A stretch of 64,000 nucleotides of DNA from the IMG/VR virus record IMGVR_UViG_3300028833_000071; one strand, written 5' to 3'. The position numbers were made by a program, and so were the translations under genes. Shown here in pieces: positions 4,772 to 62,460 of this stretch (its first letter is position 1; each line of letters begins with the position of its first letter). The notes beneath the pieces were generated by a model. The model did not search any database. It had not been told where the DNA came from and was given only the letters and a program-made list of their open reading frames with translations. The DNA comes from a virus. Its lineage: Duplodnaviria; Caudoviricetes.

Positions 4772-5314
4772 TTAAATACCCATATCCATAAGCTCACGGT
4801 TTGCACTTCCTTTACGATGTAAAAGACGAGAATCTGCTTGCTTTCCGTATTTTGCAGCCTCTTTTTGGCGTTTCCATTGTTTATCAAATTTCTGTTTTAG
4901 TAATGTGAATGGGTCGTCTACATCAACATCCTGTACATATTGTTTTGCTTTTTTACGATAATCTTGAGTAAAATCAACGGAACTATCTTTAGGATGTCTA
5001 ATTTCATATTCTTTTTCGAGAATCGAAAATCTATTAGATATGGCGTTGTAAATTTTAGTCCACGCATATTTGTCATAACCATATGAAGCTTCTAAGTCAG
5101 AAAACCAACCCATACCACTGTCGCCAAATTCACATATTTCTGCATCGTAATCGCCATTTATAATTTGAGAGCAAAAATTATCTATGTGATTGTATTTGTT
5201 TTCTCTCAGCACTTTTTTCACAGATTCATTGACGATTTGGTGTAATTGGCTTTCTGTAAGTCTAATAACTTGTTTTCTATTCATATTTTGAATTTTATTC
5301 ATCTTATTTTTCAT
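4772..5314 (-). CDS. Protein with N-terminal LTE-helix tag (putative head-packaged protein)
   Basis: QVIRLTESQLHQIVNESVKKVLRE; ATG directly follows ACTATTTAT (5315-5323). Confidence 0.65.
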   Translation of the reverse strand: MKNKMNKIQNMNRKQVIRLTESQLHQIVNESVKKVLRENKYNHIDNFCSQIINGDYDAEICEFGDSGMGWFSDLEASYGYDKYAWTKIYNAISNRFSILEKEYEIRHPKDSSVDFTQDYRKKAKQYVQDVDVDDPFTLLKQKFDKQWKRQKEAAKYGKQADSRLLHRKGSANRELMDMGI

Positions 5315-5386
5315 ATAAATAGTATGAAGTTTTGAATTTTTCAGATTTTTTTCGTATATTAAAAAAGGACATTTAAAAATTAAGCG

Positions 5387-5980
5387 ATGTTTAAAAATTT
5401 GACTATTGGTATTGATGTTGACGGAGTTTTGAGGGATAATCTTCAAATCATGGTTGACTTGTATAACAAGGAGTTTAATAGTTCTATGACTGTTGACGAT
5501 ATAAAAGATTATCGGACAGAGGTAACATTTCCATCCATAGAAACAACCACAGGAAAAACAGCAAGCGAATGGTTTTTTCAGGACCATTCCAAAGAAATAT
5601 TCTTAAATGCAAGCCCATTTCCAAATGTAGCTGATGATATTAAGAAACTTAGAGAATATGCAAATGTTATTATTATAACATATCAAAAATCGTTTAAAAA
5701 CAAGATGGAAACTCTATGTTGGCTTGAAAACAACGGGATAGAATATGACGGGATTATGTTTATAAAAGATAAAACAAGACTGTTGTGTGATTATTTGATT
5801 GACGACAATGATTGGAATTTTATTGATTCCAATGCTACACACGCTATTTTAATTAATGCGCCATATAATAAAAACAAAACCGTTATAAATATGCTTAAAA
5901 ATAGCGGTTGTGACGATATGAAAAGATATGATAGTTTTCACGAATTTGTTAATGATTTCTGCGAAGCACAAAAAATTTAA
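5387..5980 (+). CDS. HAD-family 5'(3')-deoxyribonucleotidase (NT5C-like)
   Basis: IGIDVDGVL motif I, LIDD motif, APYN. Confidence 0.85.
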   Translation: MFKNLTIGIDVDGVLRDNLQIMVDLYNKEFNSSMTVDDIKDYRTEVTFPSIETTTGKTASEWFFQDHSKEIFLNASPFPNVADDIKKLREYANVIIITYQKSFKNKMETLCWLENNGIEYDGIMFIKDKTRLLCDYLIDDNDWNFIDSNATHAILINAPYNKNKTVINMLKNSGCDDMKRYDSFHEFVNDFCEAQKI

Positions 5981-9023: not shown

Positions 9024-9824
9024 TTAATAAAGTTCTATAACGACACTTCCATTACTTGTGTCGGCTTCTATAAATGTTCGTTCACTTTCAAGCGCTTGGG
9101 CTAACATTCTAACATTGATATAATTTTCAATTGTTTCTTTTGGCGCATTTTCAATATCACCATACATTTGGTTAATTATTTCTTCACCAAGGGCTTCGTC
9201 ATCATCTTCATCAACGCCAAATTCTTGATAAATACTTTCAGAGTCTTCATTATATGGGCCATCCCATGAACATTCACGCCCAAATCTTTCATAATCAAAA
9301 TAGTATTCAAGATTACTAAAGCTTTCAGGCCCTGATTCGTCAAGATATTGATATACAACATCTTCAACACTATCACAATTATAATGGACGGTATAATCTT
9401 GATTATTTAATATATTCATTGCTTCATTTGCATCGTCACAATAATCCGCAATGGCTTCTTTTATAGAATAATCTTCATCTATATTGATAAAATCCCAAAG
9501 TTCGTCTGAAATATAACTTTCACTAATAAATCCTTCAGGGATATTTTCCCAGTCTTGGAACATTAATTCGGCATCTCTTTCATCTGCATGAAGCGTTTCT
9601 CTACAATATTCAAGAAATTCTTCTCTTGAGTCAAAATTATCAAGATTAACCCATTCGCCTTTTAATGAACCTGAATTATACTTTCCATAAGTACCCACAT
9701 ATACAGCAGGACTATCATTTGAAGCCCTATATTGTTCTTTCAATATTTTAACGGCACGTTTTACCATGTACCTTATGTCTTGCTCTGTGATTTGCATTTT
9801 ATTGTTTTTCATTTTATATTGCAT
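9024..9824 (-). CDS. ardA: ArdA-family antirestriction DNA mimic with N-terminal helix tag
   Basis: AVYVGTYGKYNSGSLKGEW, ELMFQDWENIP, YFDYERFGRE; very acidic. Confidence 0.88.
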   Translation of the reverse strand: MQYKMKNNKMQITEQDIRYMVKRAVKILKEQYRASNDSPAVYVGTYGKYNSGSLKGEWVNLDNFDSREEFLEYCRETLHADERDAELMFQDWENIPEGFISESYISDELWDFINIDEDYSIKEAIADYCDDANEAMNILNNQDYTVHYNCDSVEDVVYQYLDESGPESFSNLEYYFDYERFGRECSWDGPYNEDSESIYQEFGVDEDDDEALGEEIINQMYGDIENAPKETIENYINVRMLAQALESERTFIEADTSNGSVVIELY

Positions 9825-10596: not shown

Positions 10597-11142
10597 TCAT
10601 TTTATCTTTCTTGAATTTTCTTTAATTAGTCTAACAGCCTTTTTAACCATATCATAAATATCATTTTCAGTTAAATGAATTTTTTTATTTTCATATAAGT
10701 CATCATCATCACGGTCATAAGGGTCAAAATCATAGTCACTATTATACTCATCACGTTCACCAGCAAGAAATTCCAAGTCAAAATCCATTAAATCTGCTAT
10801 TTCACCATAAGTCTTACCATCAATTTTATTTATTATGTCTTCATATATTATGTCTTCATAAGGGCCATCCTCATTTACAACAGAAATCTTTGTTATTTCG
10901 AAATCAAAATCACTATCATCCAACTCAAATTCAGCCGGATAAGCGTAATCATTTGAACTATAATTGCCTCGTCTTGTACAATACCAACTTGGACATTCAG
11001 TTACCTTATATTCAACATAATATGTATGCAATTTACCTTGAGCTTCTATGCAACCTTCAGTATTACTAATACCGCGATTCTCTTTGGAATTTCTTAATGC
11101 TTCCTTTAAATCTTGTATTATATTTTCAAGTGTTTCTTTCAT
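10597..11142 (-). CDS. Acidic protein with C-terminal LTE-helix tag
   Basis: KKIHLTENDIYDMVKKAVRLIKE. Confidence 0.65.
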   Translation of the reverse strand: MKETLENIIQDLKEALRNSKENRGISNTEGCIEAQGKLHTYYVEYKVTECPSWYCTRRGNYSSNDYAYPAEFELDDSDFDFEITKISVVNEDGPYEDIIYEDIINKIDGKTYGEIADLMDFDLEFLAGERDEYNSDYDFDPYDRDDDDLYENKKIHLTENDIYDMVKKAVRLIKENSRKIK

Positions 11143-11161
11143 TGTTTTTTATTTTAATTTG

Positions 11162-17115: not shown

Positions 17116-17550
17116 ATGGATAAAACAAAAAACATAATGAAGTACGACGAATACATGGACAAAGAGTGCATTCCGATTTGCGATGCATTGAACGAGTTGC
17201 CTGGTGTGACCACATTCGAATCATGTTGTGGTCATCTTCAAAGACGATATGTTGTGTATCTTTATACCGACAACCCATATTCGATGGCTGTAATCGCAAG
17301 AGCATTGGACAGAAGATACCTTCCCGCAAAATCTACATGGAAAGTGACAATCGAAACAATTGATGTTGAAAGGATTCCACAGTTCTGCATCGGTATATAT
17401 TCTGAAGAACCATTCAAAGATTATGATACAATGATGCATGATGTAAACGAGGTTGTTGAATCAATAAATTATTGGAGACAACCTGAATTTTATGACTATT
17501 TCAAGTTCACTAAATACAATAAAGATGTAAGTGAATCTTTGTGCCAATAA
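17116..17550 (+). CDS. Hypothetical protein, near-identical paralog of 54066..54473
   Basis: Shared TFESCCGH..VVYLYTDNPYSMAVIARALDRRYLP. Confidence 0.75.
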   Translation: MDKTKNIMKYDEYMDKECIPICDALNELPGVTTFESCCGHLQRRYVVYLYTDNPYSMAVIARALDRRYLPAKSTWKVTIETIDVERIPQFCIGIYSEEPFKDYDTMMHDVNEVVESINYWRQPEFYDYFKFTKYNKDVSESLCQ

Positions 17551-17563
17551 GTATATAATTACC
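17540..17563 (-). mobile_element. Solo transposon terminal inverted repeat
   Basis: Reverse complement GGTAATTATATACTTATTGGCACA, followed by A8; matches TIRs at 36227 and 37489. Confidence 0.75.
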
Positions 17564-23661: not shown

Positions 23662-25067
23662 CTGACATACTCCCACGATTGAAATCGTGGGGTTCTTAAT
23701 TTCTTAAGAACCTGTATTTATCAACAAGTTATTCTTGTTGACCACGCTTGACACATCAAGTGGCGCTGTCAGCAGCGCAAGGTGATTTTGTTCATATCGC
23801 TTCAATATGTTAATCGCAGCGTTTAAATCACGGTCTATTACTATGGAATCGGAAATCTGTACCGTCCTGTCGGACAGTCCAACCCTTTCCTCAAACAATT
23901 TGCCGGTCAGACAGTTTTGTTGTGTTGTCCATTTCTCGTTAATGGAAATAAGTTCAGTATTGCTGTTCTGACATTTGTATGACAAATATTCCATAAATGT
24001 GGCTATTGATGATTCACTGAAGTTGCGAGAATTCTTCGTTAACTTGTTGCTTCTCTTCTCCATCAGTGTCTTCACACTCAAGTCACCAACTACAATTGTC
24101 TTGTAGTTCATATTCACCAATTTCTTGCTCTGAATATGCAGAGTCTGTTTTATCTGTGCATTTTTCCTTTTATACAGTTTGTTCTTCACCTTCTTTAACT
24201 TGCAGTGACGGCTGCTGCCCTTTGTGCATTTATCCATTTTGGACTGAACTGACGATATCTGCTTGCGGAAATACTTGTTTATCCTTCTTGCTTTGTTCGG
24301 TATCGTGACAACATTGCCCAAATTATCGACACAGTTGCACAGGTTTTTAATGCCAAGGTCAATCGCAAGTACCTTGTTTTCAGTTGTCAACACCTCTTCT
24401 TCGTCAACATGGTTTGCTACACCTAAGTCAAGCAGATATTTTCCGTTGACCATCTTCAGTTTGACTTCCTTGACAGTTAAAGACTTGTAGTCAATATTCG
24501 GGATACCTTTATAAGTTACGGCAATACCATTTACTTTCAATGTGGTGTTATTTATGAATTTCCATCCCGATTGGTTGTACACAACAGTGTGAAATTTGTC
24601 AACATCGTTGATTTTATGGGGCGGTTTCGCTGTATGGTCTTTTTTAACCAAAGTGAAAAAAGACTTGTATGAGGAATAGATTTCCTTGGCAACCCTTTGG
24701 CTTGCCTTGGAGTTAAGGCAAGTTAAAAAGGGATTTTCTTTTCTGAGGAAGGTTATATCTCTGTCAAGGTCAAATTCGGTTTTTATCTTTCCTGTTGTTT
24801 CATAGGTTTGGTTTTCGATGTCGATAAGCAGGTTATACAAAAGGTTCCTTGCAAGGGACAGGTTTTTCAGTTCCTGCTCCTGCTGACCATTCGGGAAAAG
24901 TCTTAATGTATATGTCCTGTACTGTATCATCACTTATAAATAGTATAATTATTAAAAAAAGTCAAGAAATTAATAAAAAATTTTATTTATTTAATAAAAA
25001 AATTGTATATTTAGGATAGAGCAATTCATCCCACGACTAAAGTGGTGGGCTTTCTTGCTCGTTTATC
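23662..25067 (-). mobile_element. IS200/IS605-family element, tnpB only (IS1341-like)
   Basis: IS608-like ends on minus strand. LE: TTAC|14 nt-AAAG-hairpin. RE: GAAC-hairpin-AGTATGTCAG. Confidence 0.88.
23704..24933 (-). CDS. tnpB: TnpB RNA-guided endonuclease
   Basis: YTLRLFPN..Q N-terminus, LAIDLG, IVVGDL, INEKWTTQ, DRDLNAAINIL. Confidence 0.93.
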   Translation of the reverse strand: MMIQYRTYTLRLFPNGQQEQELKNLSLARNLLYNLLIDIENQTYETTGKIKTEFDLDRDITFLRKENPFLTCLNSKASQRVAKEIYSSYKSFFTLVKKDHTAKPPHKINDVDKFHTVVYNQSGWKFINNTTLKVNGIAVTYKGIPNIDYKSLTVKEVKLKMVNGKYLLDLGVANHVDEEEVLTTENKVLAIDLGIKNLCNCVDNLGNVVTIPNKARRINKYFRKQISSVQSKMDKCTKGSSRHCKLKKVKNKLYKRKNAQIKQTLHIQSKKLVNMNYKTIVVGDLSVKTLMEKRSNKLTKNSRNFSESSIATFMEYLSYKCQNSNTELISINEKWTTQQNCLTGKLFEERVGLSDRTVQISDSIVIDRDLNAAINILKRYEQNHLALLTAPLDVSSVVNKNNLLINTGS

Positions 25068-27697: not shown

Positions 27698-29401
27698 ATG
27701 GCACAAAATATTAATAGACTAGAAGTTTTTAAAGCGATACAAACAATTTCCAATTACATTAAAAATGACGGAAAAAAATCAAAAAAAGTTAAAGAAGCAT
27801 TTCAATTGCTGTCTGATTTTTTTAATATAAATAATGAAAAAGAGATAAGTATATTGTCGGTAATTTATTATGATTTTATGAGCACTGATTTTGGGCGATA
27901 TTGCTCAAAGGACTATATATCTTTCCATTCACTATTAGAAGGTTTCGGTAAAAAGGACATTATTGGCTTATTTGAAATGCAGGCTGAAATTGATGATTTA
28001 TGTGCAAGACGGCTTATTTTTATTTATCCCATAAGAAAATATATAAAAAGTACATTTAAAAATTATTATCGGATATATCTTAAAGAAAAATCATTTTCTT
28101 CTTTTATAAATGATGACGAAAATAATATTTTTTTTGCTACTCTTCAAGATGATGAATTAATGGATTTGGGCGATTTTATTAAGGATTATGTATCAGTAAG
28201 TGATGATTCTTATTTTCTTTATTATAAAGATTGTTTAAAGGCTTGTTTTCCAGAAAATAAAGTTGCCTCGAAAATAATTGATTATATTAATAATAATGAT
28301 TTTTTAGTCCTTAGATGTCTTAAAAGATTAAGTGATGGCATTTATAACAACAATATAATGAAATTTAAATTATCTGATATATTAGGACAATATTATTGTA
28401 ATGCCGAAATAAGAAGATGTTTAAACAATTTAAAAAAAAGCAAAGGTAAATCACCATTAGAAACTTGTGGCTTATTCAATATAACAAAGGCCTCTCAAAT
28501 AGATAAAATAGAAATTTCTCTTCAGCCATGGGCGATAAAGGAATTATTTGGCATTGATGAAGAAATGCAAGCCAATCAGGAAATCAATGGTCCTGTTTCT
28601 TATATCAGCAATAGGAAGATTAAGAAAAAGGAACTCTTTTATAATAAAGAAAACGATAAAGACATTCAAAGATTATTTGAATTATTGGATGATAAGAACT
28701 ATAAAAAAGTAACAAAAAGATTAAATGACAAAGGTTATAAAAAGGGGCTAACATTAATACTACATGGTGGTCCTGGTACAGGCAAGACTGAAACTGTTTT
28801 ACAATTGGCCAAAAAGACAAATCGAGATATATTGAAACTTAATATTGACGAAATACGCTCGTGTTGGGTAGGCGAAAGTGAGAAGAATATGAAAAATGTC
28901 TTTGATATGTACAGAGAGTACATGGAAAAGGCAAAAAAGACCCCTATATTATTCTTAAATGAGGCTGATGCTATTATTTCAAAACGTACTGATATTGGTA
29001 CAAATGCAAGTGTTGATAAGATGGAAAATTCCCTTCAAAACATTTTATTGGATGAATTAGAAAATTTCGAGGGGATTCTTATTGCAACGACAAATCTAAT
29101 TAACAATATTGATAATGCTTTTGACCGTAGGTTTTTGTTCAAAGTTAAATTAGACAAACCTTCAATCGAAGTCAAAGAAAAAATTTGGAAATCAAAATTA
29201 AGTGATGTATCTGATGGTATAATAAAAGATATTGCGGTTAAATTTGATTTTTCAGGCGGACAAATAGACAACATTGTTAAAAAGATAAATATTGACAATA
29301 TTCTTTGGGGAAACAAGCCTAACAAGGAAATGCTTGAAGATTTCTGTTCTAAGGAATTGTTGATTGATACGAAAACAAAACCAATTGGTTTTCAAAAATA
29401 A
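27698..29401 (+). CDS. AAA+ ATPase with long N-terminal domain
   Basis: GGPGTGKT, LFLNEAD, ATTN, AFDRRF. Confidence 0.9.
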   Translation: MAQNINRLEVFKAIQTISNYIKNDGKKSKKVKEAFQLLSDFFNINNEKEISILSVIYYDFMSTDFGRYCSKDYISFHSLLEGFGKKDIIGLFEMQAEIDDLCARRLIFIYPIRKYIKSTFKNYYRIYLKEKSFSSFINDDENNIFFATLQDDELMDLGDFIKDYVSVSDDSYFLYYKDCLKACFPENKVASKIIDYINNNDFLVLRCLKRLSDGIYNNNIMKFKLSDILGQYYCNAEIRRCLNNLKKSKGKSPLETCGLFNITKASQIDKIEISLQPWAIKELFGIDEEMQANQEINGPVSYISNRKIKKKELFYNKENDKDIQRLFELLDDKNYKKVTKRLNDKGYKKGLTLILHGGPGTGKTETVLQLAKKTNRDILKLNIDEIRSCWVGESEKNMKNVFDMYREYMEKAKKTPILFLNEADAIISKRTDIGTNASVDKMENSLQNILLDELENFEGILIATTNLINNIDNAFDRRFLFKVKLDKPSIEVKEKIWKSKLSDVSDGIIKDIAVKFDFSGGQIDNIVKKINIDNILWGNKPNKEMLEDFCSKELLIDTKTKPIGFQK

Positions 29402-35107: not shown

Positions 35108-35680
35108 ATGTACGAAATAGAAGTTGAAAACAAAAATTTGATAATAACAGACCCATGTTATTTGGACAATGTTCTTGACAAGAATGATTTAACTCTTGCT
35201 CTCATGGATTATTGGGAAAAATTCATTGGAGGAATACGAGGGGATAATTATAGTTCAAAATTACAAAAATTTGGGTTCACAAATAATATATGCTGTAGTA
35301 CTTTATATGGTGATTGGTCTTGTACTGCATTTCATGTTAAAATTGACCCAAGAGAAATAAATACAGTTAAAGAGCTTGACAAGTTTGATAACTTAAAGGA
35401 AAGTATAGATAAATACCATATTGGAAAATTATGTGCTGACGCTGGTATGGTGTGTGTTGTAGATGCTGATGATGTTAAAAAGTTTAACCCACATTTTTTT
35501 GAATGGGCAATTTTTCATCAACATTGTGTAACAGCAATACCAAATTTTACTGGCACAATCGGTATTCATGATATTGACCCAAAATATGAAGATATGCCAC
35601 ATTATAGAATTAGAACCATATATGGCATTAGTAGTGTGAAAAAGAATGATAATTTCTTTATATATCAAACAGGCCTATGA
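35108..35680 (+). CDS. Conserved hypothetical protein
   Basis: IITDPCY, TLYGDWSC, CADAGMVCV motifs. Confidence 0.7.
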   Translation: MYEIEVENKNLIITDPCYLDNVLDKNDLTLALMDYWEKFIGGIRGDNYSSKLQKFGFTNNICCSTLYGDWSCTAFHVKIDPREINTVKELDKFDNLKESIDKYHIGKLCADAGMVCVVDADDVKKFNPHFFEWAIFHQHCVTAIPNFTGTIGIHDIDPKYEDMPHYRIRTIYGISSVKKNDNFFIYQTGL

Positions 35681-35931
35681 GCGTTTTTAAAAGTTGGGTA
35701 ATAGAATGCTATTGTTGTGGTGATATACGATTTAGCACTACATTTAACGGGCTTTGTAAATATCATACTGTTTATAAGAAAAAAAGTATAAACCCGCTTG
35801 CAGACGAACTGGCGGGTTTTGACAAAATGCCCAAATATATCGGTTTTTGCAACGATGAATGTGCTGATAAATATTTCACTGAAATTGAACCAAGAGATAA
35901 AGCATTTTACAAGAAAATCATAAAACAATGA
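35677..35931 (+). CDS. Small Cys-rich protein
   Basis: Coupled ORF. Confidence 0.55.
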   Translation: MSVFKSWVIECYCCGDIRFSTTFNGLCKYHTVYKKKSINPLADELAGFDKMPKYIGFCNDECADKYFTEIEPRDKAFYKKIIKQ

Positions 35932-36212
35932 TTAACGAAGAAAAAATATTAGGAAAACTAATAACAGAGGAATTAGGCGTTTTAGATGAAGTTGGTAATT
36001 GGACTAATAAAATTGCAAATGATTTTATTTTAAATTGCCCTAAGGAAACCCAAGAAATTGCTGAACATATATATTTTAAATCATCAAAATGGCTTAAAAG
36101 AATTGTATCAATGTCATTGAAATCTTGTAGGAGACAATTAAGCCGTGCCATTGCAAAAGTCAGAAAAGATTATGATTATACCCATGGCGGAAATACTTCG
36201 GTTACAGTTTAA
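35928..36212 (+). CDS. Hypothetical protein
   Basis: Coupled ORF. Confidence 0.55.
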   Translation: MINEEKILGKLITEELGVLDEVGNWTNKIANDFILNCPKETQEIAEHIYFKSSKWLKRIVSMSLKSCRRQLSRAIAKVRKDYDYTHGGNTSVTV

Positions 36213-36293
36213 TAAATAAAAAAAAAGGGAACTATATACTTGATGGCACAGGATTTTGAACAATAGGAAAATATTTGTGGTATAACTATTTAT

Positions 36294-36587
36294 GATTCGG
36301 CTGCGGGAAAACCCACTTCTTTAGATGTGGGATGAAAGCAGCCTTAACAAAATATTTTGTTTTTTCAAATATTTTTAGTATATTTGTACAGAAGTTCCGA
36401 GTTAGGGATAGTACTAACTACCACCAAGGGGTTTGCCTTGCAGAGATGGAAATGCATCTCAAAAAAATGGGGACAGAGAAGGACTATCTCTGTGTGGAGT
36501 TAAAGTAAGTGGTTGCACTATGCTTCCCCAAGCACTTCGGTGCTATGCTCCCAAGAACCCCACTATTTCAATAGTGGGAGTAGTCAG
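36294..36587 (+). mobile_element. Non-autonomous IS605-type element encoding only an omegaRNA-like RNA
   Basis: TTAT|14 nt-AAAA-hairpin LE; GAAC-hairpin-AGTAGTCAG RE; removal restores ACTATTTAT-AAGG. Confidence 0.8.
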
Positions 36588-36607
36588 AAGGAAACAGATG
36601 TTATGAA
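36392..36607 (+). ncRNA. Stand-alone TnpB omegaRNA-like RNA plus flanking guide
   Basis: Homologous to 61895-62062 with compensatory changes; GACTAT/GTAGTC pseudoknot potential; promoter motif at 36377. Confidence 0.7.
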
Positions 36608-37478
36608 ACAAGAAATAATAAAACTAAATAAAAATAATTTAGTAAATATTGTATGCAAAAGTATAAGACAAATCATTAATGAATCAAATTGTTTGAAATA
36701 TAATATTGACATTTCTAAAATTGACATTGGAGATTTAAAAAAGGCTTATAAAGATTTTAGACTTGTACCAACACAAGCGTGTTTTGATGATGTATTATAT
36801 AGGCCAACAACAATCAAAGAAGCTTTTGGTGATATTTTGCAACCAGACGATGTTGTTAACAAAATAATCAATAAATATGGCATACCATCAAGTTGTGTTC
36901 TTAAAAGAGAAGCTTACAATAAAATCTACATATATGTTGTCACGGCAGTAATTGGGATTAATGATAAACTTATAGAAAATGATATGTCAAAGATGGGTTA
37001 TTATTTGGGATTCAAAGGAAATATTCAGGATGTAGGTGGAATGCAATTTCAAACGCTTCAATTTGAACCATCAAGTCAATTACAGGATGATGAAACAGAA
37101 AACATAAAGTCAGCTTATAATATATTATATCATTGGACACCATCTTATTCATTAGATGGAATTATGCAAAATGGTTTAATACCAAGCAGTAAAAACAAAG
37201 TGTTTAATTATCCACCGAGAACATATTTAATGAAAGGAGATTGTAGTGATAGATATATATTAGGGTTGGGACAATCTTTATGCTCTTCAAATGATAACCC
37301 CAATAATAATGGTGAATATGCCTTGTTAGCAATAAATATTGAGAATATTGATGACGACATTAGATTCTATTACGATTCAAATAGTGAAATGGGAATATAT
37401 ACAGAGCAACCAATAGCCAAAGATAGAATTAAAATAATGAATACAGTGCAATTTGTAAAAAACATTAAAAATCAATAA
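36603..37478 (+). CDS. Helix-tagged protein with ADP-ribosyltransferase-like C-terminal domain
   Basis: N-terminal IIKLNKNNLVNIVCKSIRQIINES; LYHWT..IMQNGL..RTYL..YYD..IYT pattern. Confidence 0.6.
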   Translation: MKQEIIKLNKNNLVNIVCKSIRQIINESNCLKYNIDISKIDIGDLKKAYKDFRLVPTQACFDDVLYRPTTIKEAFGDILQPDDVVNKIINKYGIPSSCVLKREAYNKIYIYVVTAVIGINDKLIENDMSKMGYYLGFKGNIQDVGGMQFQTLQFEPSSQLQDDETENIKSAYNILYHWTPSYSLDGIMQNGLIPSSKNKVFNYPPRTYLMKGDCSDRYILGLGQSLCSSNDNPNNNGEYALLAINIENIDDDIRFYYDSNSEMGIYTEQPIAKDRIKIMNTVQFVKNIKNQ

Positions 37479-37645
37479 TTATATTATTTGTGCCGTTAGG
37501 TATATAATTGCCAAAAAAAAAACATAGAACATGTTCACAGAACTTTGTCAAAATTATCTCACTCAAGATAAGTGTAAATGTGGCTATTGCCAATGTTTTG
37601 GAGAAAAATGCCCTAATTATAATACCTTTTTAAATATTCAAGAAA

Positions 37646-38011
37646 ATGCAGATTGTCAATTATACAACATGGAAAAAGAAAAATAATCCCGAAATCCATA
37701 GCGTTAGAGATGGTGTTAAAGGGTGGGCCGTGCAAACAGTAGCCCCAACAATAGAATATTATGGTTGGAAACAGTGCATTTTCGATAGTTACTATAGAGT
37801 CTGGGATGGAACAAAGCCTAAAGACCACACAATACAATTATTAAAAGAAACTTGGGGGGACAATTGGTTAATTGGCAAAAAATTTGTATATTATGAGTAT
37901 CACGGTACTAACGGATACATGGATTGTATGTATGTATGGTATAAAGATGAAACTGAACCTGATTTAGATTTAGAATATTGGAAAAATAAATATAAAAATG
38001 AATTGGATTAA
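37646..38011 (+). CDS. Hypothetical protein
   Basis: ORF. Confidence 0.6.
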   Translation: MQIVNYTTWKKKNNPEIHSVRDGVKGWAVQTVAPTIEYYGWKQCIFDSYYRVWDGTKPKDHTIQLLKETWGDNWLIGKKFVYYEYHGTNGYMDCMYVWYKDETEPDLDLEYWKNKYKNELD

Positions 38012-42352: not shown

Positions 42353-42424
42353 ATTATTTAAAAATAGATTTTTAGGAGAGCCATGGAAAAAGAAATTTTA
42401 ATTGAATTATCATAATTTAAAAAG

Positions 42425-42441
42425 TTTGGCACAGTTTTTGA
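42425..42441 (+). promoter_or_regulatory. sigma54-like motif
   Basis: TTTGGCACA-GTTT-TTGA. Confidence 0.7.
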
Positions 42442-42492
42442 TAAAGGTGAAAATAGAAATTAAAATTTAGATACATAACAAAAAGAGATTAT

Positions 42493-43029
42493 ATGATTGT
42501 TATTCATATTGACAATGGTTCATCTGATGCTGCAATTCTCTCAAGAATTTATGAGGGACTTGAAAATACAACTGTTTATTACAACAGAAACAAGAGTAAT
42601 ATCAAGAGGCTTCTTAGAATAACAGGCAATGAACCAGTTATGTTGTTGGGTCATGGTAATCCAAATGGTTTGTTTAATATAAGTCAAAATGGTTTTGCTG
42701 TTGGAAGTAATCATATAGAATGGCTTAGAAACAGACCGGTAATTGGTATATTTTGTTATGCTTCAGAATTTGCTGACAAGTATAATTTACACGGTTTTTT
42801 TACTTCTATGTTTATTTCAAATATGCAAGAAGCTATAATGGAACAGAGAGACCAAAATGCCACTGATGAAATAATAGCGGGCCAAACAAAATTATTTTGT
42901 GATAGAATTCGTGAATTAATCATTAACAATACACCTATGTCACAATGGGTTGAAATATTGCAGGGACAAGCCGATTTATCAATACCATTTGTAAGGTTTA
43001 ATTATGAAGCAATGACTTATTTTGAATAA
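42493..43029 (+). CDS. Caspase/gingipain-fold (His-Cys dyad) peptidase-like protein
   Basis: LLGHG and IFCYA motifs. Confidence 0.5.
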   Translation: MIVIHIDNGSSDAAILSRIYEGLENTTVYYNRNKSNIKRLLRITGNEPVMLLGHGNPNGLFNISQNGFAVGSNHIEWLRNRPVIGIFCYASEFADKYNLHGFFTSMFISNMQEAIMEQRDQNATDEIIAGQTKLFCDRIRELIINNTPMSQWVEILQGQADLSIPFVRFNYEAMTYFE

Positions 43030-45859: not shown

Positions 45860-45880
45860 TTTTTTCTCCCCATTTTATAG

Positions 45881-45897
45881 TTTGGCACGGTTTTTGA
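45881..45897 (+). promoter_or_regulatory. sigma54-like motif
   Basis: TTTGGCACG-GTTT-TTGA; identical copies at 46319, 49124, 50996. Confidence 0.75.
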
Positions 45898-45930
45898 TAA
45901 GATAAAAAAGTAACATTAAAAATTTAAATT

Positions 45931-46173
45931 ATGAACTACGTAATTGAACTTACTTGGAAAGATGATGAAGGCTATGAGTGCAAAGAGTACTTCAATAGTG
46001 TATATGCCGATGATTTTGGTATTCTCAGAGTAACAACTACACCCAATCCTTTGGACGCTAAAATGTTCGTTTTAGTTGAGCCTGAAAACAGAAATTCCAT
46101 TCTGTTGGCCATCAAAAACGTAATGAAACATGCCAAAATAAACGTGAAGAAATTGAACTACAGTCTTGAATAA
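45931..46173 (+). CDS. Hypothetical protein
   Basis: Directly behind sigma54-like motif. Confidence 0.65.
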   Translation: MNYVIELTWKDDEGYECKEYFNSVYADDFGILRVTTTPNPLDAKMFVLVEPENRNSILLAIKNVMKHAKINVKKLNYSLE

Positions 46174-50889: not shown

Positions 50890-50907
50890 CTAACATTGGG
50901 GTGTGGT

Positions 50908-50967
50908 CTGACATACTCCCACGATTGAAATCGTGGGGTTCTTAACTTTTTTAAGAACTTGTATTTG
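50908..50967 (-). mobile_element. Solo right end of the tnpB element
   Basis: CTGACATACTCCCACGATTGAAATCGTGGGGTTCTTAA identical to 23662-23699, similarity continues about 20 nt. Confidence 0.85.
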
Positions 50968-51045
50968 TAAAAAATGGTTTGAGATACTTGAATAGTTTGG
51001 CACGGTTTTTGATAGGCTAAAAGTAGAATATTAAAAATTAAAATT

Positions 51046-51432
51046 ATGGAAGAAGCATTTGTAAAATTTGAAACGGCATTGTTGTTAAAAAGTAAGGGTT
51101 TTAACTGGCCAGTACAAAGGTTTTATGACAAAAATGGAAACATTTGTGCAAAATATTGTGATTATAGTGATGGAAAAGGTTGGGATTCGTTCATAAAATG
51201 TCCAACTCAGGAAATGGTCATGGATTGGTTTCGTACCAACTACAAAATTCATATTTCACCTTACTATACAAGTATTGGTTGGTATTATGAAATTTTTAAT
51301 TTGAACTGTTGCGACATCACTGGCTGTGAACCGTTTTATAGAGTTGGCATTCCTTCAAAGGAACTAACAAAAGAAACTTGTAAAGAAGCCATTGAAGAAG
51401 CTATTAAACATACGCTTGAACATTTAATTTAA
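51046..51432 (+). CDS. Phage protein, FETAxLLKxKGF family
   Basis: Paralog of 59451..59909. Confidence 0.7.
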   Translation: MEEAFVKFETALLLKSKGFNWPVQRFYDKNGNICAKYCDYSDGKGWDSFIKCPTQEMVMDWFRTNYKIHISPYYTSIGWYYEIFNLNCCDITGCEPFYRVGIPSKELTKETCKEAIEEAIKHTLEHLI

Positions 51433-56645: not shown

Positions 56646-56657
56646 AAAAACTAAATT

Positions 56658-56933
56658 ATAGGAAAAAGAACAATTAAAATAAATGAGGAAGACATAAGAA
56701 ATATTGTTGCAGAAAGAAAGGAATTAATTTCTGAAATGGCAACTTTAAGAATGAAAGATAGTAATTTGCCAATGGATGTATGGCTTGATGAAGGTGCAAC
56801 TTATGTTGGTCACGCACCAAGACTTAAATTTAGAGCAAGCAATGGCCAAAGAACTACAAGAGAATTTTCATCCATGTTGCTAACAAATCCACCAAATATG
56901 ATAATTGACACAACCACCTCTAAACAATCTTGA
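56658..56933 (+). pseudogene. Decayed helix-tagged gene next to a TIR
   Basis: ATA (for ATG) GKRTIKINEEDIRNIVAE..LISE in frame with MATLRMKDSNLP; ends early. Confidence 0.6.
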
Positions 56934-56956: not shown

Positions 56957-56980
56957 TGTGCCATCAAATATATAATCTCC
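56957..56980 (-). mobile_element. Solo TIR
   Basis: Reverse complement GGAGATTATATATTTGATGGCACA followed by A-run. Confidence 0.7.
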
Positions 56981-58691: not shown

Positions 58692-58844
58692 CAATGAATA
58701 TACTTGTAACATTTTTAACACTATTTTTTGTACAAATAATAATCGGAATGATTGCAGTCATTAATGATGATTCTGATTCTATAGATGATGATTATTATTG
58801 GAAAAATTAAGAAAACTTTATACTTGATAATACAAAAATAATTT

Positions 58845-61439: not shown

Positions 61440-61841
61440 ATGGAAAAAATATATATTTTAGAAGAAGAAAATTTACAAGAAAATTCTTGTTCAAATGTGG
61501 GTGATAAAATGAATTTTGTTAATCAATACATACATATACAAGAACTGAATGCACAAAAACGATTGATTGATAGTATTCTTGAAGATTATAAAAAGGAAGT
61601 TGTACGAATAATGACAAGTGAAGATTCTATGACAACTGAAGATTATCATTATCTTTTTACACTTAAGGAAGTTAAAAATTATCTATTAAGAGAGCGGCTT
61701 TCGATAAACAACTCTCTTTCGGAATGGAATACATTTGATAAATGTACATTAAACCAAATCATTGATTATATTAACTCATTCAAAAACGATTCTATAATTC
61801 AATGCGAAGAGAAAAGTCTCAAACCACAATTAAACCTTTAA
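61440..61841 (+). CDS. Hypothetical protein
   Basis: ORF. Confidence 0.55.
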   Translation: MEKIYILEEENLQENSCSNVGDKMNFVNQYIHIQELNAQKRLIDSILEDYKKEVVRIMTSEDSMTTEDYHYLFTLKEVKNYLLRERLSINNSLSEWNTFDKCTLNQIIDYINSFKNDSIIQCEEKSLKPQLNL

Positions 61842-62082
61842 CAAAATATTTTGTTTTTGGGGAATATTTTTGTATATTAATGGTAGAAAATCAAAGTTCC
61901 GGGTTGGGGACAGTACCAACTGCCAAGGTGGGGCTTGCCACCATTGGGACAGGGGTGGACTACTCCTGTGTGGAGTTAAAGTAAACGAATGGGCTATGCT
62001 TCCCAAAAGCACAATGTGCTTGCTCCCAAGGACCCCACGATTTTAACTGTGGGAGTAGTCAGGGCCAATATCTTGACCCACA
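61838..62082 (+). ncRNA. Second stand-alone omegaRNA-like locus (promoter, scaffold, RE, guide), no left end
   Basis: TTAACAAAATATTTTGTTTTT + TTGTATATT, scaffold homologous to 36392-36587, ends GGGAGTAGTCAG at 62062. Confidence 0.7.
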
Positions 62083-62157: not shown

Positions 62158-62391
62158 ATGACAAGAGAAGAATTGATTTATTTAGGGGCAGTACAAATAT
62201 ATGCCGCATTTGAATCCAATCCGCCAAAAGTAGGCGGAGAACCTTTACCAACAAGAGGATTAGTAGAGGAAGAAGCACTTGAAATTGCTGCTGATATGTA
62301 TGGAAGACTTCCGAAATATGTAAAGTATGCAAAGAAACAATACAAAAAAGAGAAAGAATATCATCAAATAACTGATGAAGAAATAGCATAA
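62158..62391 (+). CDS. Hypothetical protein
   Basis: ORF. Confidence 0.6.
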   Translation: MTREELIYLGAVQIYAAFESNPPKVGGEPLPTRGLVEEEALEIAADMYGRLPKYVKYAKKQYKKEKEYHQITDEEIA

Positions 62392-62436: not shown

Positions 62437-62460
62437 TGTGTCAACAAGTATATAATTACC
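62437..62460 (-). mobile_element. Solo TIR
   Basis: Reverse complement GGTAATTATATACTTGTTGACACA followed by A7. Confidence 0.75.

Follow-up and report, generated by a model that had tools for sequence, protein, structure and literature searches.

Results of our analysis indicate that segment 36227-37512 of the window, i.e., of the whole 64,000-nt stretch of phage DNA analysed here (IMG/VR record IMGVR_UViG_3300028833_000071), is very probably a non-autonomous derivative, or mobile insertion cassette (MIC), of an IS1595-family insertion sequence (IS) circulating in large uncultured phages. This 1.3-kb segment, in surroundings of 32% G+C, contains between its terminal inverted repeats (TIRs) a promoter-like module, a nested miniature element, and one cargo gene for a protein with an N-terminal helix tag and a domain resembling ADP-ribosyltransferases (ARTs). 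Since it encodes no transposase, and its ends are shared with an IS1595 element, it fits the description of a MIC derived from the IS1595 family. At the sequence level, all the features expected of an IS1595-derived MIC are present: shared ends, an 8-bp duplication, and a passenger in the absence of a transposase.

The two arms of the cassette, 24 nt each, are complementary at 19 of 24 positions (79%), terminate with GG, and have on their outer sides two exact copies of an 8-bp target located in an A-tract. The target site is a 22-nt spacer separating two plus-strand genes: the A-tract on the left begins 6 nt past the stop codon of gene 35928..36212, and the right copy of the duplication lies 11 nt upstream of the ATG of gene 37531..37686. 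The only long open reading frame (ORF) between the ends is that of the 291-aa ART-like protein, which has no Pfam match, and a scan of 74 window ORFs, each of at least 100 aa, revealed no IS1595 domain. An earlier sequence-only reading of this DNA had described here a cargo transposon without transposase, with imperfect 24-bp inverted repeats (19 of 24 positions identical) next to A9 and A10 runs that enclose the ACTATTTAT motif and a single gene, 36603..37478. The coordinates and sequences of these features were confirmed, and the runs proved to contain the exact 8-bp sequence AAAAAAAA on both sides. An inverted pair alone is unremarkable in this AT-rich window, for which other 24-25-nt inverted pairs of 71-80% were also listed. 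The end motif itself is non-random, with five window sites matching the consensus of the sequence-only reading at up to three mismatches vs. an expectation of 0.00 based on 100 shuffles. A chance inverted repeat was also considered and is excluded by this excess over shuffles and by the 8-bp duplications of the family. A blastn search of INPHARED phages with region 35900-37900 gave no match, and no tRNAs were found in the window.

Pairs of such ends were collected from the window, from two close relatives, and from IMG/VR phage contigs found by a pattern scan. The relatives are L001, a contig of a metagenome-assembled genome (MAG) labelled Bacteroidales (83% aa identity of the cargo product), and L003, a JGI metagenome contig (82%). 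Altogether, 13 distinct inverted pairs, 355 to 2,160 bp long, were identified. In nine of them, the ends are directly flanked by perfect 8-bp direct repeats. The nine duplicated 8-mers (A8, ATAATAAA, T8, TTTATTTT, TTTTTTAA, TAAAGTTA, TTTTTATA, A8, and AAAAAATA) consist of A or T at 71 of 72 positions, and in several cases the T-tract of a terminator hairpin served as the target. In the same DNA, identical 8-mers at equal spacing occur in 26 of 179,815 cases (1.4e-4), and mismatched pairings of left and right flanks are identical in two of 156.

The assignment of this family of ends to IS1595 comes from a search for the PF12762 domain in five IMG/VR records that carry them. A match was obtained in one, the 302-kb phage contig IMGVR_UViG_3300028591_000072 (L096). 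The 311-aa protein encoded by L096:1399-2334(-) contains the Zn_ribbon_IS1595 (PF12760, 7.8e-09) and DDE_Tnp_IS1595 (PF12762, 3.1e-44) domains, and its gene is enclosed by a left repeat (301-324) with no core mismatches and a right repeat (2437-2460) with one, in a contig that contains at least five good ends. The presence in another phage contig of a TIR-bounded IS1595 transposase with the same ends places the window element in the IS1595 lineage. The sequence-only reading had proposed a transposase-less IS1595-family element with a duplication of about 8 bp and had recommended a search for such a transposase between the same 24-bp ends; the transposase was found there, and the proposal is borne out by the ends shared with the L096 element and by the nine duplicated pairs. 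The ends of the ISNwi1 subgroup read ggnnatTAT, and the fit of GGCAATTAT and GGGAACTAT to this pattern is a lead to possible membership in that subgroup.

The comparison of the window with its two close relatives speaks for a mobile element as well. The cargo genes of L001 and L003 are both bracketed by the same inverted motif, and their nucleotide identity to the window, of about 82%, begins with the ATG and continues through the right repeat, up to its outer edge. In the case of L003, the last matching base is the outermost one of that repeat, and the flanks have no similarity to the window. In the case of L001, the flanks are homologues (~46% aa identity) of window genes 27698..29401 (AAA ATPase) and 42493..43029, which are 13 kb apart in the window. 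Judged from these alignments, the same cargo with the same ends occupies three unrelated sites with sharp homology edges.

Table 1. Coordinates of the cassette components, solo ends, and ORFs with the N-terminal tag (leader) in the window
Feature	Position	Strand	Basis or remark
Left target duplication copy, AAAAAAAA	36219..36226	.	Inside A9 tract 36218-36226
Left terminal inverted repeat, GGGAACTATATACTTGATGGCACA	36227..36250	+	0 mismatches over 16 scored core positions of family consensus
Subterminal promoter-like module ending in ACTATTTAT (36285-36293)	36251..36293	+	Sequence comparison with L001
Predicted nested IS200/IS605-type miniature element, 294 nt	36294..36587	+	End hairpins, absence from L001 and L003
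15-nt leader, AAGGAAACAGATGTT	36588..36602	+	Matches L001 and L003 leaders after ACTATTTA(T/A)
Cargo gene, 291 aa	36603..37478	+	ORF, homologues, AlphaFold2 (AF2) model
Right terminal inverted repeat, TGTGCCGTTAGGTATATAATTGCC on + strand	37489..37512	-	L003 nucleotide homology ends exactly there
Right target duplication copy, AAAAAAAA	37513..37520	.	Inside A10 tract 37513-37522
Solo right-type end	17540..17563	-	Overlaps stop codon of 17116..17550; no partner within 4 kb
Solo right-type end	56957..56980	-	Directly after tagged gene ~56658..56930; no left end found
Solo right-type end	62437..62460	-	After second scaffold RNA copy (61838-62062) and 77-aa ORF (62158..62391)
Tagged ORF	4775-5602	-	Leader hidden Markov model (HMM)
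Tagged ORF	9027-9824	-	Leader HMM
Tagged ORF	56655-56930	+	Leader HMM
ORF with leader match at C-terminus	10600-11148	-	Leader HMM

Several observations weigh against the assignment of the segment as an IS1595-derived cassette. Four of the 13 pairs, including the transposase-bearing one, are without a duplication. The duplication at the window copy is a homopolymer, which is weak evidence when taken alone; the duplication evidence is strong because of the family as a whole, notably ATAATAAA, TAAAGTTA, and TTTATTTT. The two ends of the window copy differ at five of 24 positions, all of them variable-spacer or unscored sites, and within the 64-kb window, to which the search for a transposase source in cis extended, none was found. 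Alleles with an empty site, which the sequence-only reading had named as a check, were found neither for the window site nor for three other insertions in searches of IMG/VR relatives of the upstream gene 35108..35680, of the exact junction pattern at the window site (an empty site would read ...TAATAAATAAAAAAAAA joined directly to CATAGAACATG), and of the L036 and L026 junction patterns.

Part of these observations would be explained if the cassette moved by homologous recombination between dispersed repeats, like the promoter-stem-loop (PeSL) cassettes proposed for T4-type phages, and not by transposition. The four pairs without target duplications and the tandem and nested ends in L001 speak for recombination, and so does the composition of the window copy: its region 36227-36278 matches, at 92% identity, the left end with the promoter module of another gene, gene X of L001, and not the module of the ART gene in L003. 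The absence of duplications in four pairs indicates that recombination between copies also reshuffles the ends, and the match to the gene X module indicates that ends and cargo have been reassorted by recombination as well, which also fits those four pairs. However, recombination between repeats makes no target duplications, yet nine pairs are exact at unrelated sites, and an autonomous, transposase-bearing member of the family exists. Most probably, recombination acts in addition to transposition and not instead of it; as the only means of movement, we consider it very unlikely.

There is little to recommend the view that the 24-nt motif is a recurring intergenic promoter or another regulatory site and that the inverted pair is a regulatory arrangement instead of transposon ends. 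The sequence TGTGCC..TATATAAT is found in the three solo copies of the window and in several copies of L001, which terminate 15-21 nt upstream of the start codon (ATG) of a plus-strand gene. Additionally, the motif contains a TATAAT-like box, and the inner end of the left repeat together with the adjacent bases reads TGGCAC-N5-TTTG, which resembles sigma-54-type motifs. A promoter, however, would not make exact and varied 8-bp direct repeats on both sides of nine of 13 pairs, would not bracket an IS1595 transposase, and would not lie just where the 82% identity between otherwise unrelated contexts breaks off sharply, and a motif of five copies per 64 kb with about 100 genes is rare. The ends of ISs often carry outward or inward promoters, so a regulatory side effect is compatible with the role of the motif as transposon ends, and these IS1595-type ends may have promoter activity too. 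The idea of a phase-variable inverton, in which the repeats would be invertase sites that flip the gene segment, is in line with the position of the repeats around a promoter and a gene and with the invertons for which Bacteroidales, the probable hosts according to the L001 record label, are known, but it is almost certainly wrong, since the orientation of the gene relative to the two distinguishable ends is identical in the window, L001, and L003, no recombinase domain is among the Pfam families listed for window ORFs, and the target duplications and the transposase would be left unexplained.

If the segment is an IS1595-derived cassette, an IS1595 DDE transposase supplied in trans would bind both ends and excise or copy the segment, and AT-rich tracts, often the T-tracts of terminators, would be cut with an 8-bp stagger for its insertion. 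The transposase could be provided by a full copy elsewhere in the genome, by a co-infecting phage, or by the host. In a sample of 301 genomes of the order to which the L001 MAG belongs (record label Bacteroidales), related IS1595 transposases are encoded by 35, with at most 46% identity to the phage one. Their ends are similar to the phage-type ends and not identical (e.g., GGCAATGATATAC...ACA), and exact phage-type ends were not found among these 301 genomes. The occurrence of related transposases in the host order suggests that this IS1595 lineage is probably of host origin. The claim that the shuttle is internal to phages is not established, as related transposases with similar ends occur in those bacterial genomes.

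The 291-aa cargo protein can be divided into the N-terminal tag (residues 1-27, encoded by 36603-36683), a ferredoxin-like part (residues ~77-159), and an ART fold (residues ~160-288, encoded by 37080-37466). Its family has over 100 members (118 homologues were found), and its PHROG match to RNA 2'-phosphotransferase is marginal (E 0.033). The AF2 model, built from 34 homologues, has a mean pLDDT of 79.8. When it was compared with PDB structures with the use of Foldseek, the top 19 matches were Tpt1/KptA proteins, followed by DarT1. In a VIA-align superposition, residues 161-280 fit the NAD lobe of KptA with a Z score of 9.9 and a root-mean-square deviation of 2.3-2.4 A over 94-95 residues, at 23% identity; CC0527, the A subunits of pertussis, cholera, and typhoid toxins, and DarT gave Z scores of 6-8. 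The HxT..I..GL motif, on the basis of which an ART-like domain had been proposed, corresponds in the family profile to LYHWTP..NGLIP, aligned to LYHGTP..EGLKP of KptA. Both this alignment and the Foldseek comparison, recommended earlier as a check of the C-terminal fold, uphold the ART assignment and indicate Tpt1/KptA as the nearest relatives. The ART-domain residues invariant in the 34 homologues are H177, P180, G191, R206, Y208, N235, Y239, D258, G264, and E268. Of these, H177 aligns with the His of the KptA HGT motif, and the Tyr and Glu residues (Y208, Y239, E268) may be structurally equivalent to those of the catalytic triad of ARTs (H-Y-E or R-S-E).

Like Tpt1/KptA and DarT, the cargo protein has a C-terminal part of 130 residues that superposes on the NAD+ lobe, and it shares with Tpt1/KptA the LYH(G/W)TP..GL(I/K)P motif and probably also the Arg-x-Tyr strand that follows. 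Unlike Tpt1/KptA, it has a ferredoxin-like domain in place of the winged-helix RNA lobe with Arg-His-Arg of the catalytic tetrad, and it keeps the invariant E268, a Glu typical of transferase-type ARTs. Residues 77-159 match S6 and EpsM/PulM-type domains and not the winged-helix lobe of Tpt1, and no invariant Arg or His precedes residue 177 among the 34 homologues. Accordingly, the lack of a counterpart of the R-H-R catalytic residues of the Tpt1 RNA lobe is a point against a simple identification with the nearest structural relatives. Because of the ferredoxin-like domain instead of the winged-helix lobe, and because a conserved Arg-His pair is missing, the protein is not assigned here as a Tpt1; the model places it in the Tpt1/KptA/DarT branch of the ART superfamily. 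Its probable function is the modification of a host or nucleic-acid target with the use of NAD+.

Relatives of the cargo protein were not confirmed in IMG/VR, and the five IMG/VR records with the TIRs do not encode it. The genes of its distant homologues (L006-L017) have no such IS1595-type ends nearby, which indicates that the cargo gene is an ordinary phage gene captured by the IS lineage; as far as can be judged from these loci, the family is widespread in phages outside cassettes. In L012 (8001-8867 and 8982-9725) and L017 (7331-8170 and ~9200-9700), ART-like paralogues form tandem pairs, also without IS1595-type ends nearby. Other window ORFs of at least 100 aa have Pfam matches to NADAR (4e-42), NUDIX, ArdA, GmrSD_N, a head domain of poly(A) polymerase/CCA-adding type, and NT5C. 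The predicted NADAR and NUDIX proteins point to further ADP-ribose- or NAD-related functions in the same phage.

The tag of the cargo protein coincides with a helix at residues 10-29 of the AF2 model and contains I-N-E at residues 25-27; the [LIV]xE motif is present at the end of the tag in 22 of 34 homologues. The HMM of the leader, derived from the first 32 residues of the family, detects at least four other window ORFs, which supports the earlier notion of a shared N-terminal helix tag, and the tag is also present in passengers of other cassettes. In phage T4, the capsid-targeting sequences of internal proteins are cleaved by gp21 at (L/I)-x-E, and Alt is an ADP-ribosyltransferase packaged in the virion. 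The form of the tag, a short amphipathic helix that ends with (L/I)-x-E and occurs on unrelated proteins, matches that of T4-type capsid-targeting leaders. The analogy to Alt extends to the combination of an ART fold with an N-terminal amphipathic leader ending with (L/I/V)-x-E, and the analogy to T4 internal proteins to the occurrence of the same leader on unrelated proteins of this phage. In contrast, no sequence similarity of the cargo protein to Alt was detected, and its fold is nearest to Tpt1/KptA rather than to the R-S-E toxins. If the tag is a signal of T4-type capsid targeting and release by protease, the enzyme would be delivered together with phage DNA.

The cargo of other cassettes of the family is diverse. 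The ART-like gene is present in the window and L003 cassettes, and in L001 it is accompanied by the tagged 152-aa gene X, with tandem ends between the two. The L029 cassette encodes a 240-aa protein behind ACTATTTAT and a tagged 164-aa protein; those of L043 and L060, proteins whose N-termini resemble signal peptides or those of lipoproteins; that of L039, a 517-aa GHKL ATPase; those of L037 and L079, proteins of 377 aa and 295 aa; and those of L026, L036, and L087, small ORFs. Pfam and PHROGs searches with the cargo of these other cassettes yielded the GHKL ATPase of L039 and otherwise marginal matches only. The L096 element has two passenger genes convergent with that of the transposase; the first starts 17 nt after ACTATTTAT, and the products of both begin with the tag (MKKEFEDIIKESVRSVLYE and MNKKQRIRINENQLRQIVSESVKRILRE). 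Thus, of the earlier idea of a shuttle for ready-made cassettes of promoter, tag, and effector, the association of promoter motif and tag finds support in the L096 passengers, and the module of both is common in the cassette family, though not universal. The dedication to effectors does not: the tabulation of cargo between TIR pairs, which had been recommended, revealed lipoprotein-like proteins, a GHKL ATPase, and untagged small genes, and because of this heterogeneity the family is not a dedicated effector shuttle.

Two of the cassettes with small ORFs show further features. Straight after the target duplication in the right flank of the 355-bp cassette of L026 (L026:436-490) there is a degenerate end-like sequence, TGTGCCATATGACGCATATAGTTCGCC, which suggests repeated insertions at one hot spot. 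The 502-bp cassette of L036 (L036:8073-8574), of 40% G+C, has the non-homopolymer duplication TAAAGTTA, and its 95-aa ORF resembles by eye a fragment of a TnpB-type protein (AWSEFVRQLEYKS...).

For the three solo right-type ends of the window, no partners were found within 4 kb at up to eight mismatches, except for a poor candidate at 58811 without a duplication. The tagged gene next to the second of these ends resembles by eye gene X of L001 (L001:7444-7902), in which ELxxEMA and an HxPxhH motif come after the leader; in both the window and L001, gene X is directly upstream of a right-type IS1595 end. Gene X represents another type of cargo, the second one, in this cassette family, and its window copy has lost the left end.

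The region between the promoter-like module and the cargo gene of the window cassette differs from its counterparts in both relatives. In the 390-nt gap upstream of the gene, the G+C content reaches 45%, and the sequence folds better than when shuffled (z -3.3). In L001, ACTATTTAT is followed by AATGAAACGGTTATT and the ATG, and in L003, ACTATTTAA by ATGAAAATAAGTGTT and the ATG, so that in both ACTATTTA(T/A) precedes an uninterrupted 15-nt leader; in the window, 294 nt absent from both relatives lie between ACTATTTAT and the leader AAGGAAACAGATGTT. These 294 nt comprise a left hairpin (36299-36343), a structured scaffold, a right hairpin (36559-36578), and the terminal GTCAG (36583-36587). The insertion point is just 3' of TTTAT, and the flanks, TTTAT and AAGG, are not repeated; insertion 3' of TTTAT without duplication is the behaviour of an IS200/IS605-type miniature element. 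The comparison of sequences identifies 36294-36587 as such an element inserted into the cassette, which the sequence-only reading had overlooked.

A likely relative of this element is the TnpB element at 23662..25060(-), whose tnpB gene (23704..24933) encodes a 409-aa protein with the HTH_OrfB_IS605, OrfB_IS605, and Cas12f1-like_TNB domains. The 3' hairpin with GTCAG recurs directly after the tnpB stop codon (23662-23697(-)) and, as a right-end-only remnant that resembles the 3' end of tnpB, at 50907-50943(-). The 5' hairpin matches 25019-25060(-) upstream of tnpB, with the inner sequence conserved and the outer stem fully compensated (GGCTGC/GCAGCC vs. GAGCAA/TTGCTC). A 5'-truncated paralogue at 61838-62062 (+), 69% identical to 36344-36587, is followed by the 77-aa ORF and a solo IS1595-type end. 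Relatives of the scaffold RNA in three IMG/VR loci (L097, L098, and L100) all end at GTAGTCAG and then diverge; in the two of these loci checked, L097 and L100, no tnpB was found upstream of it. The consensus fold is accompanied by compensatory changes in nine of 35 predicted pairs, and no Rfam family matches 36294-36587 or the rest of the window. A novel riboswitch or leader RNA was considered and dropped, in view of the absence of the region from L001 and L003, the transposon-like end hairpins, and the copy beside an unrelated ORF.

Miniature elements (PATEs) and TnpB omega-RNA scaffolds are known kinds of IS200/IS605-family products. The nested element is like them in its end hairpins, which resemble those flanking tnpB, and in its structured RNA, which ends sharply on the 3' side; it is also like them in having been inserted, without duplication of the target, 3' of TTTAY, a target word that rests here on two cases. 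The nested element differs in that tnpA and tnpB are both missing from it and its internal scaffold cannot be aligned with the 3' portion of tnpB. After the capture of the cargo gene, the 294-nt element, whose end hairpins link it to the TnpB element, would have inserted between ACTATTTAT and the leader. With the element in this position, transcripts of the cargo gene must cross the structured RNA or start within it. That ACTATTTAT does not adjoin the gene in this copy weighs against the description of the cassette as promoter-driven in the sequence-only reading. The ACTATTTA motif is located 15-40 nt upstream of several minus-strand genes and of tnpB, and the window scan revealed it on the plus strand in an intergenic position only in region 36285-36293; the remark of that reading on a different promoter class is consistent with the sequence. 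ACTATTTAT is also present just upstream of the start codon of tnpB. An intergenic repeat of a different kind, the sigma-54-like TGGCACG-N4-TTTG on the plus strand at 42420-42472, 45877-45933, and 50991-51051, is shared with L003 (8925-8945, 9008-9025, and 16496-16555) at about 83% identity.

Insertion sequences are thought to be rare in the genomes of virulent phages, and the turnover of their accessory genes is usually ascribed to recombination. The sequence evidence presented here is clean in indicating that a family of DDE transposons inserts single-gene cassettes into intergenic A/T tracts of phages and that diverged phages have received one and the same cargo gene at unrelated positions. 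As a member of an uncharacterised ART-fold family with a leader resembling a capsid-loading signal, the cargo protein is a concrete candidate for an enzyme that is injected and modifies the host. Two transposon families are layered within one 1.3-kb segment, as the nested IS605-type element shows. Possibly, though in our opinion this is rather unlikely, a phage-adapted IS1595 vehicle trades modules of promoter, capsid-loading tag, and effector among large, probably Bacteroidales-infecting phages, the injected NAD-using ART-like enzyme being one such module, and the TnpB-associated miniature element has colonised the leader and couples the expression or retention of the effector to an RNA-guided system. 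If so, a two-layer transposon system would shape the arsenal of injected proteins of these phages.

The value of these findings is limited by the fact that both MICs and IS1595 elements with passenger genes are already known kinds of elements. Our literature search, of incomplete coverage, revealed no description of IS1595 cassettes in phages and nothing specific on ISNwi1 either. Known MICs include the IS231-derived MIC231 of Bacillus cereus and those with qnrD or qnrS2 (PMC3913671, PMC2600179). The window cassette shares with them the IS-type inverted repeats around passenger gene(s), the lack of a transposase, the target duplication, and the presumed mobilisation in trans by a related IS. 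However, its parent belongs to the IS1595 family and not, as in the case of MIC231, to IS231/IS4, and its replicon is a large genome of lytic-type phage. Its cargo is not a resistance or metabolic gene but a phage gene that has a promoter motif and an N-terminal tag of its own. IS1595 elements with passenger genes have been named transporter IS (tIS) by Siguier, Gagnevin & Chandler (2009), as cited in PMC7986276. The autonomous relative of the window cassette is like them in its Zn-ribbon and DDE_Tnp_IS1595 domains, GG-ended ends, 8-bp duplication, and internal passengers, and the window copy differs from them in having no transposase.

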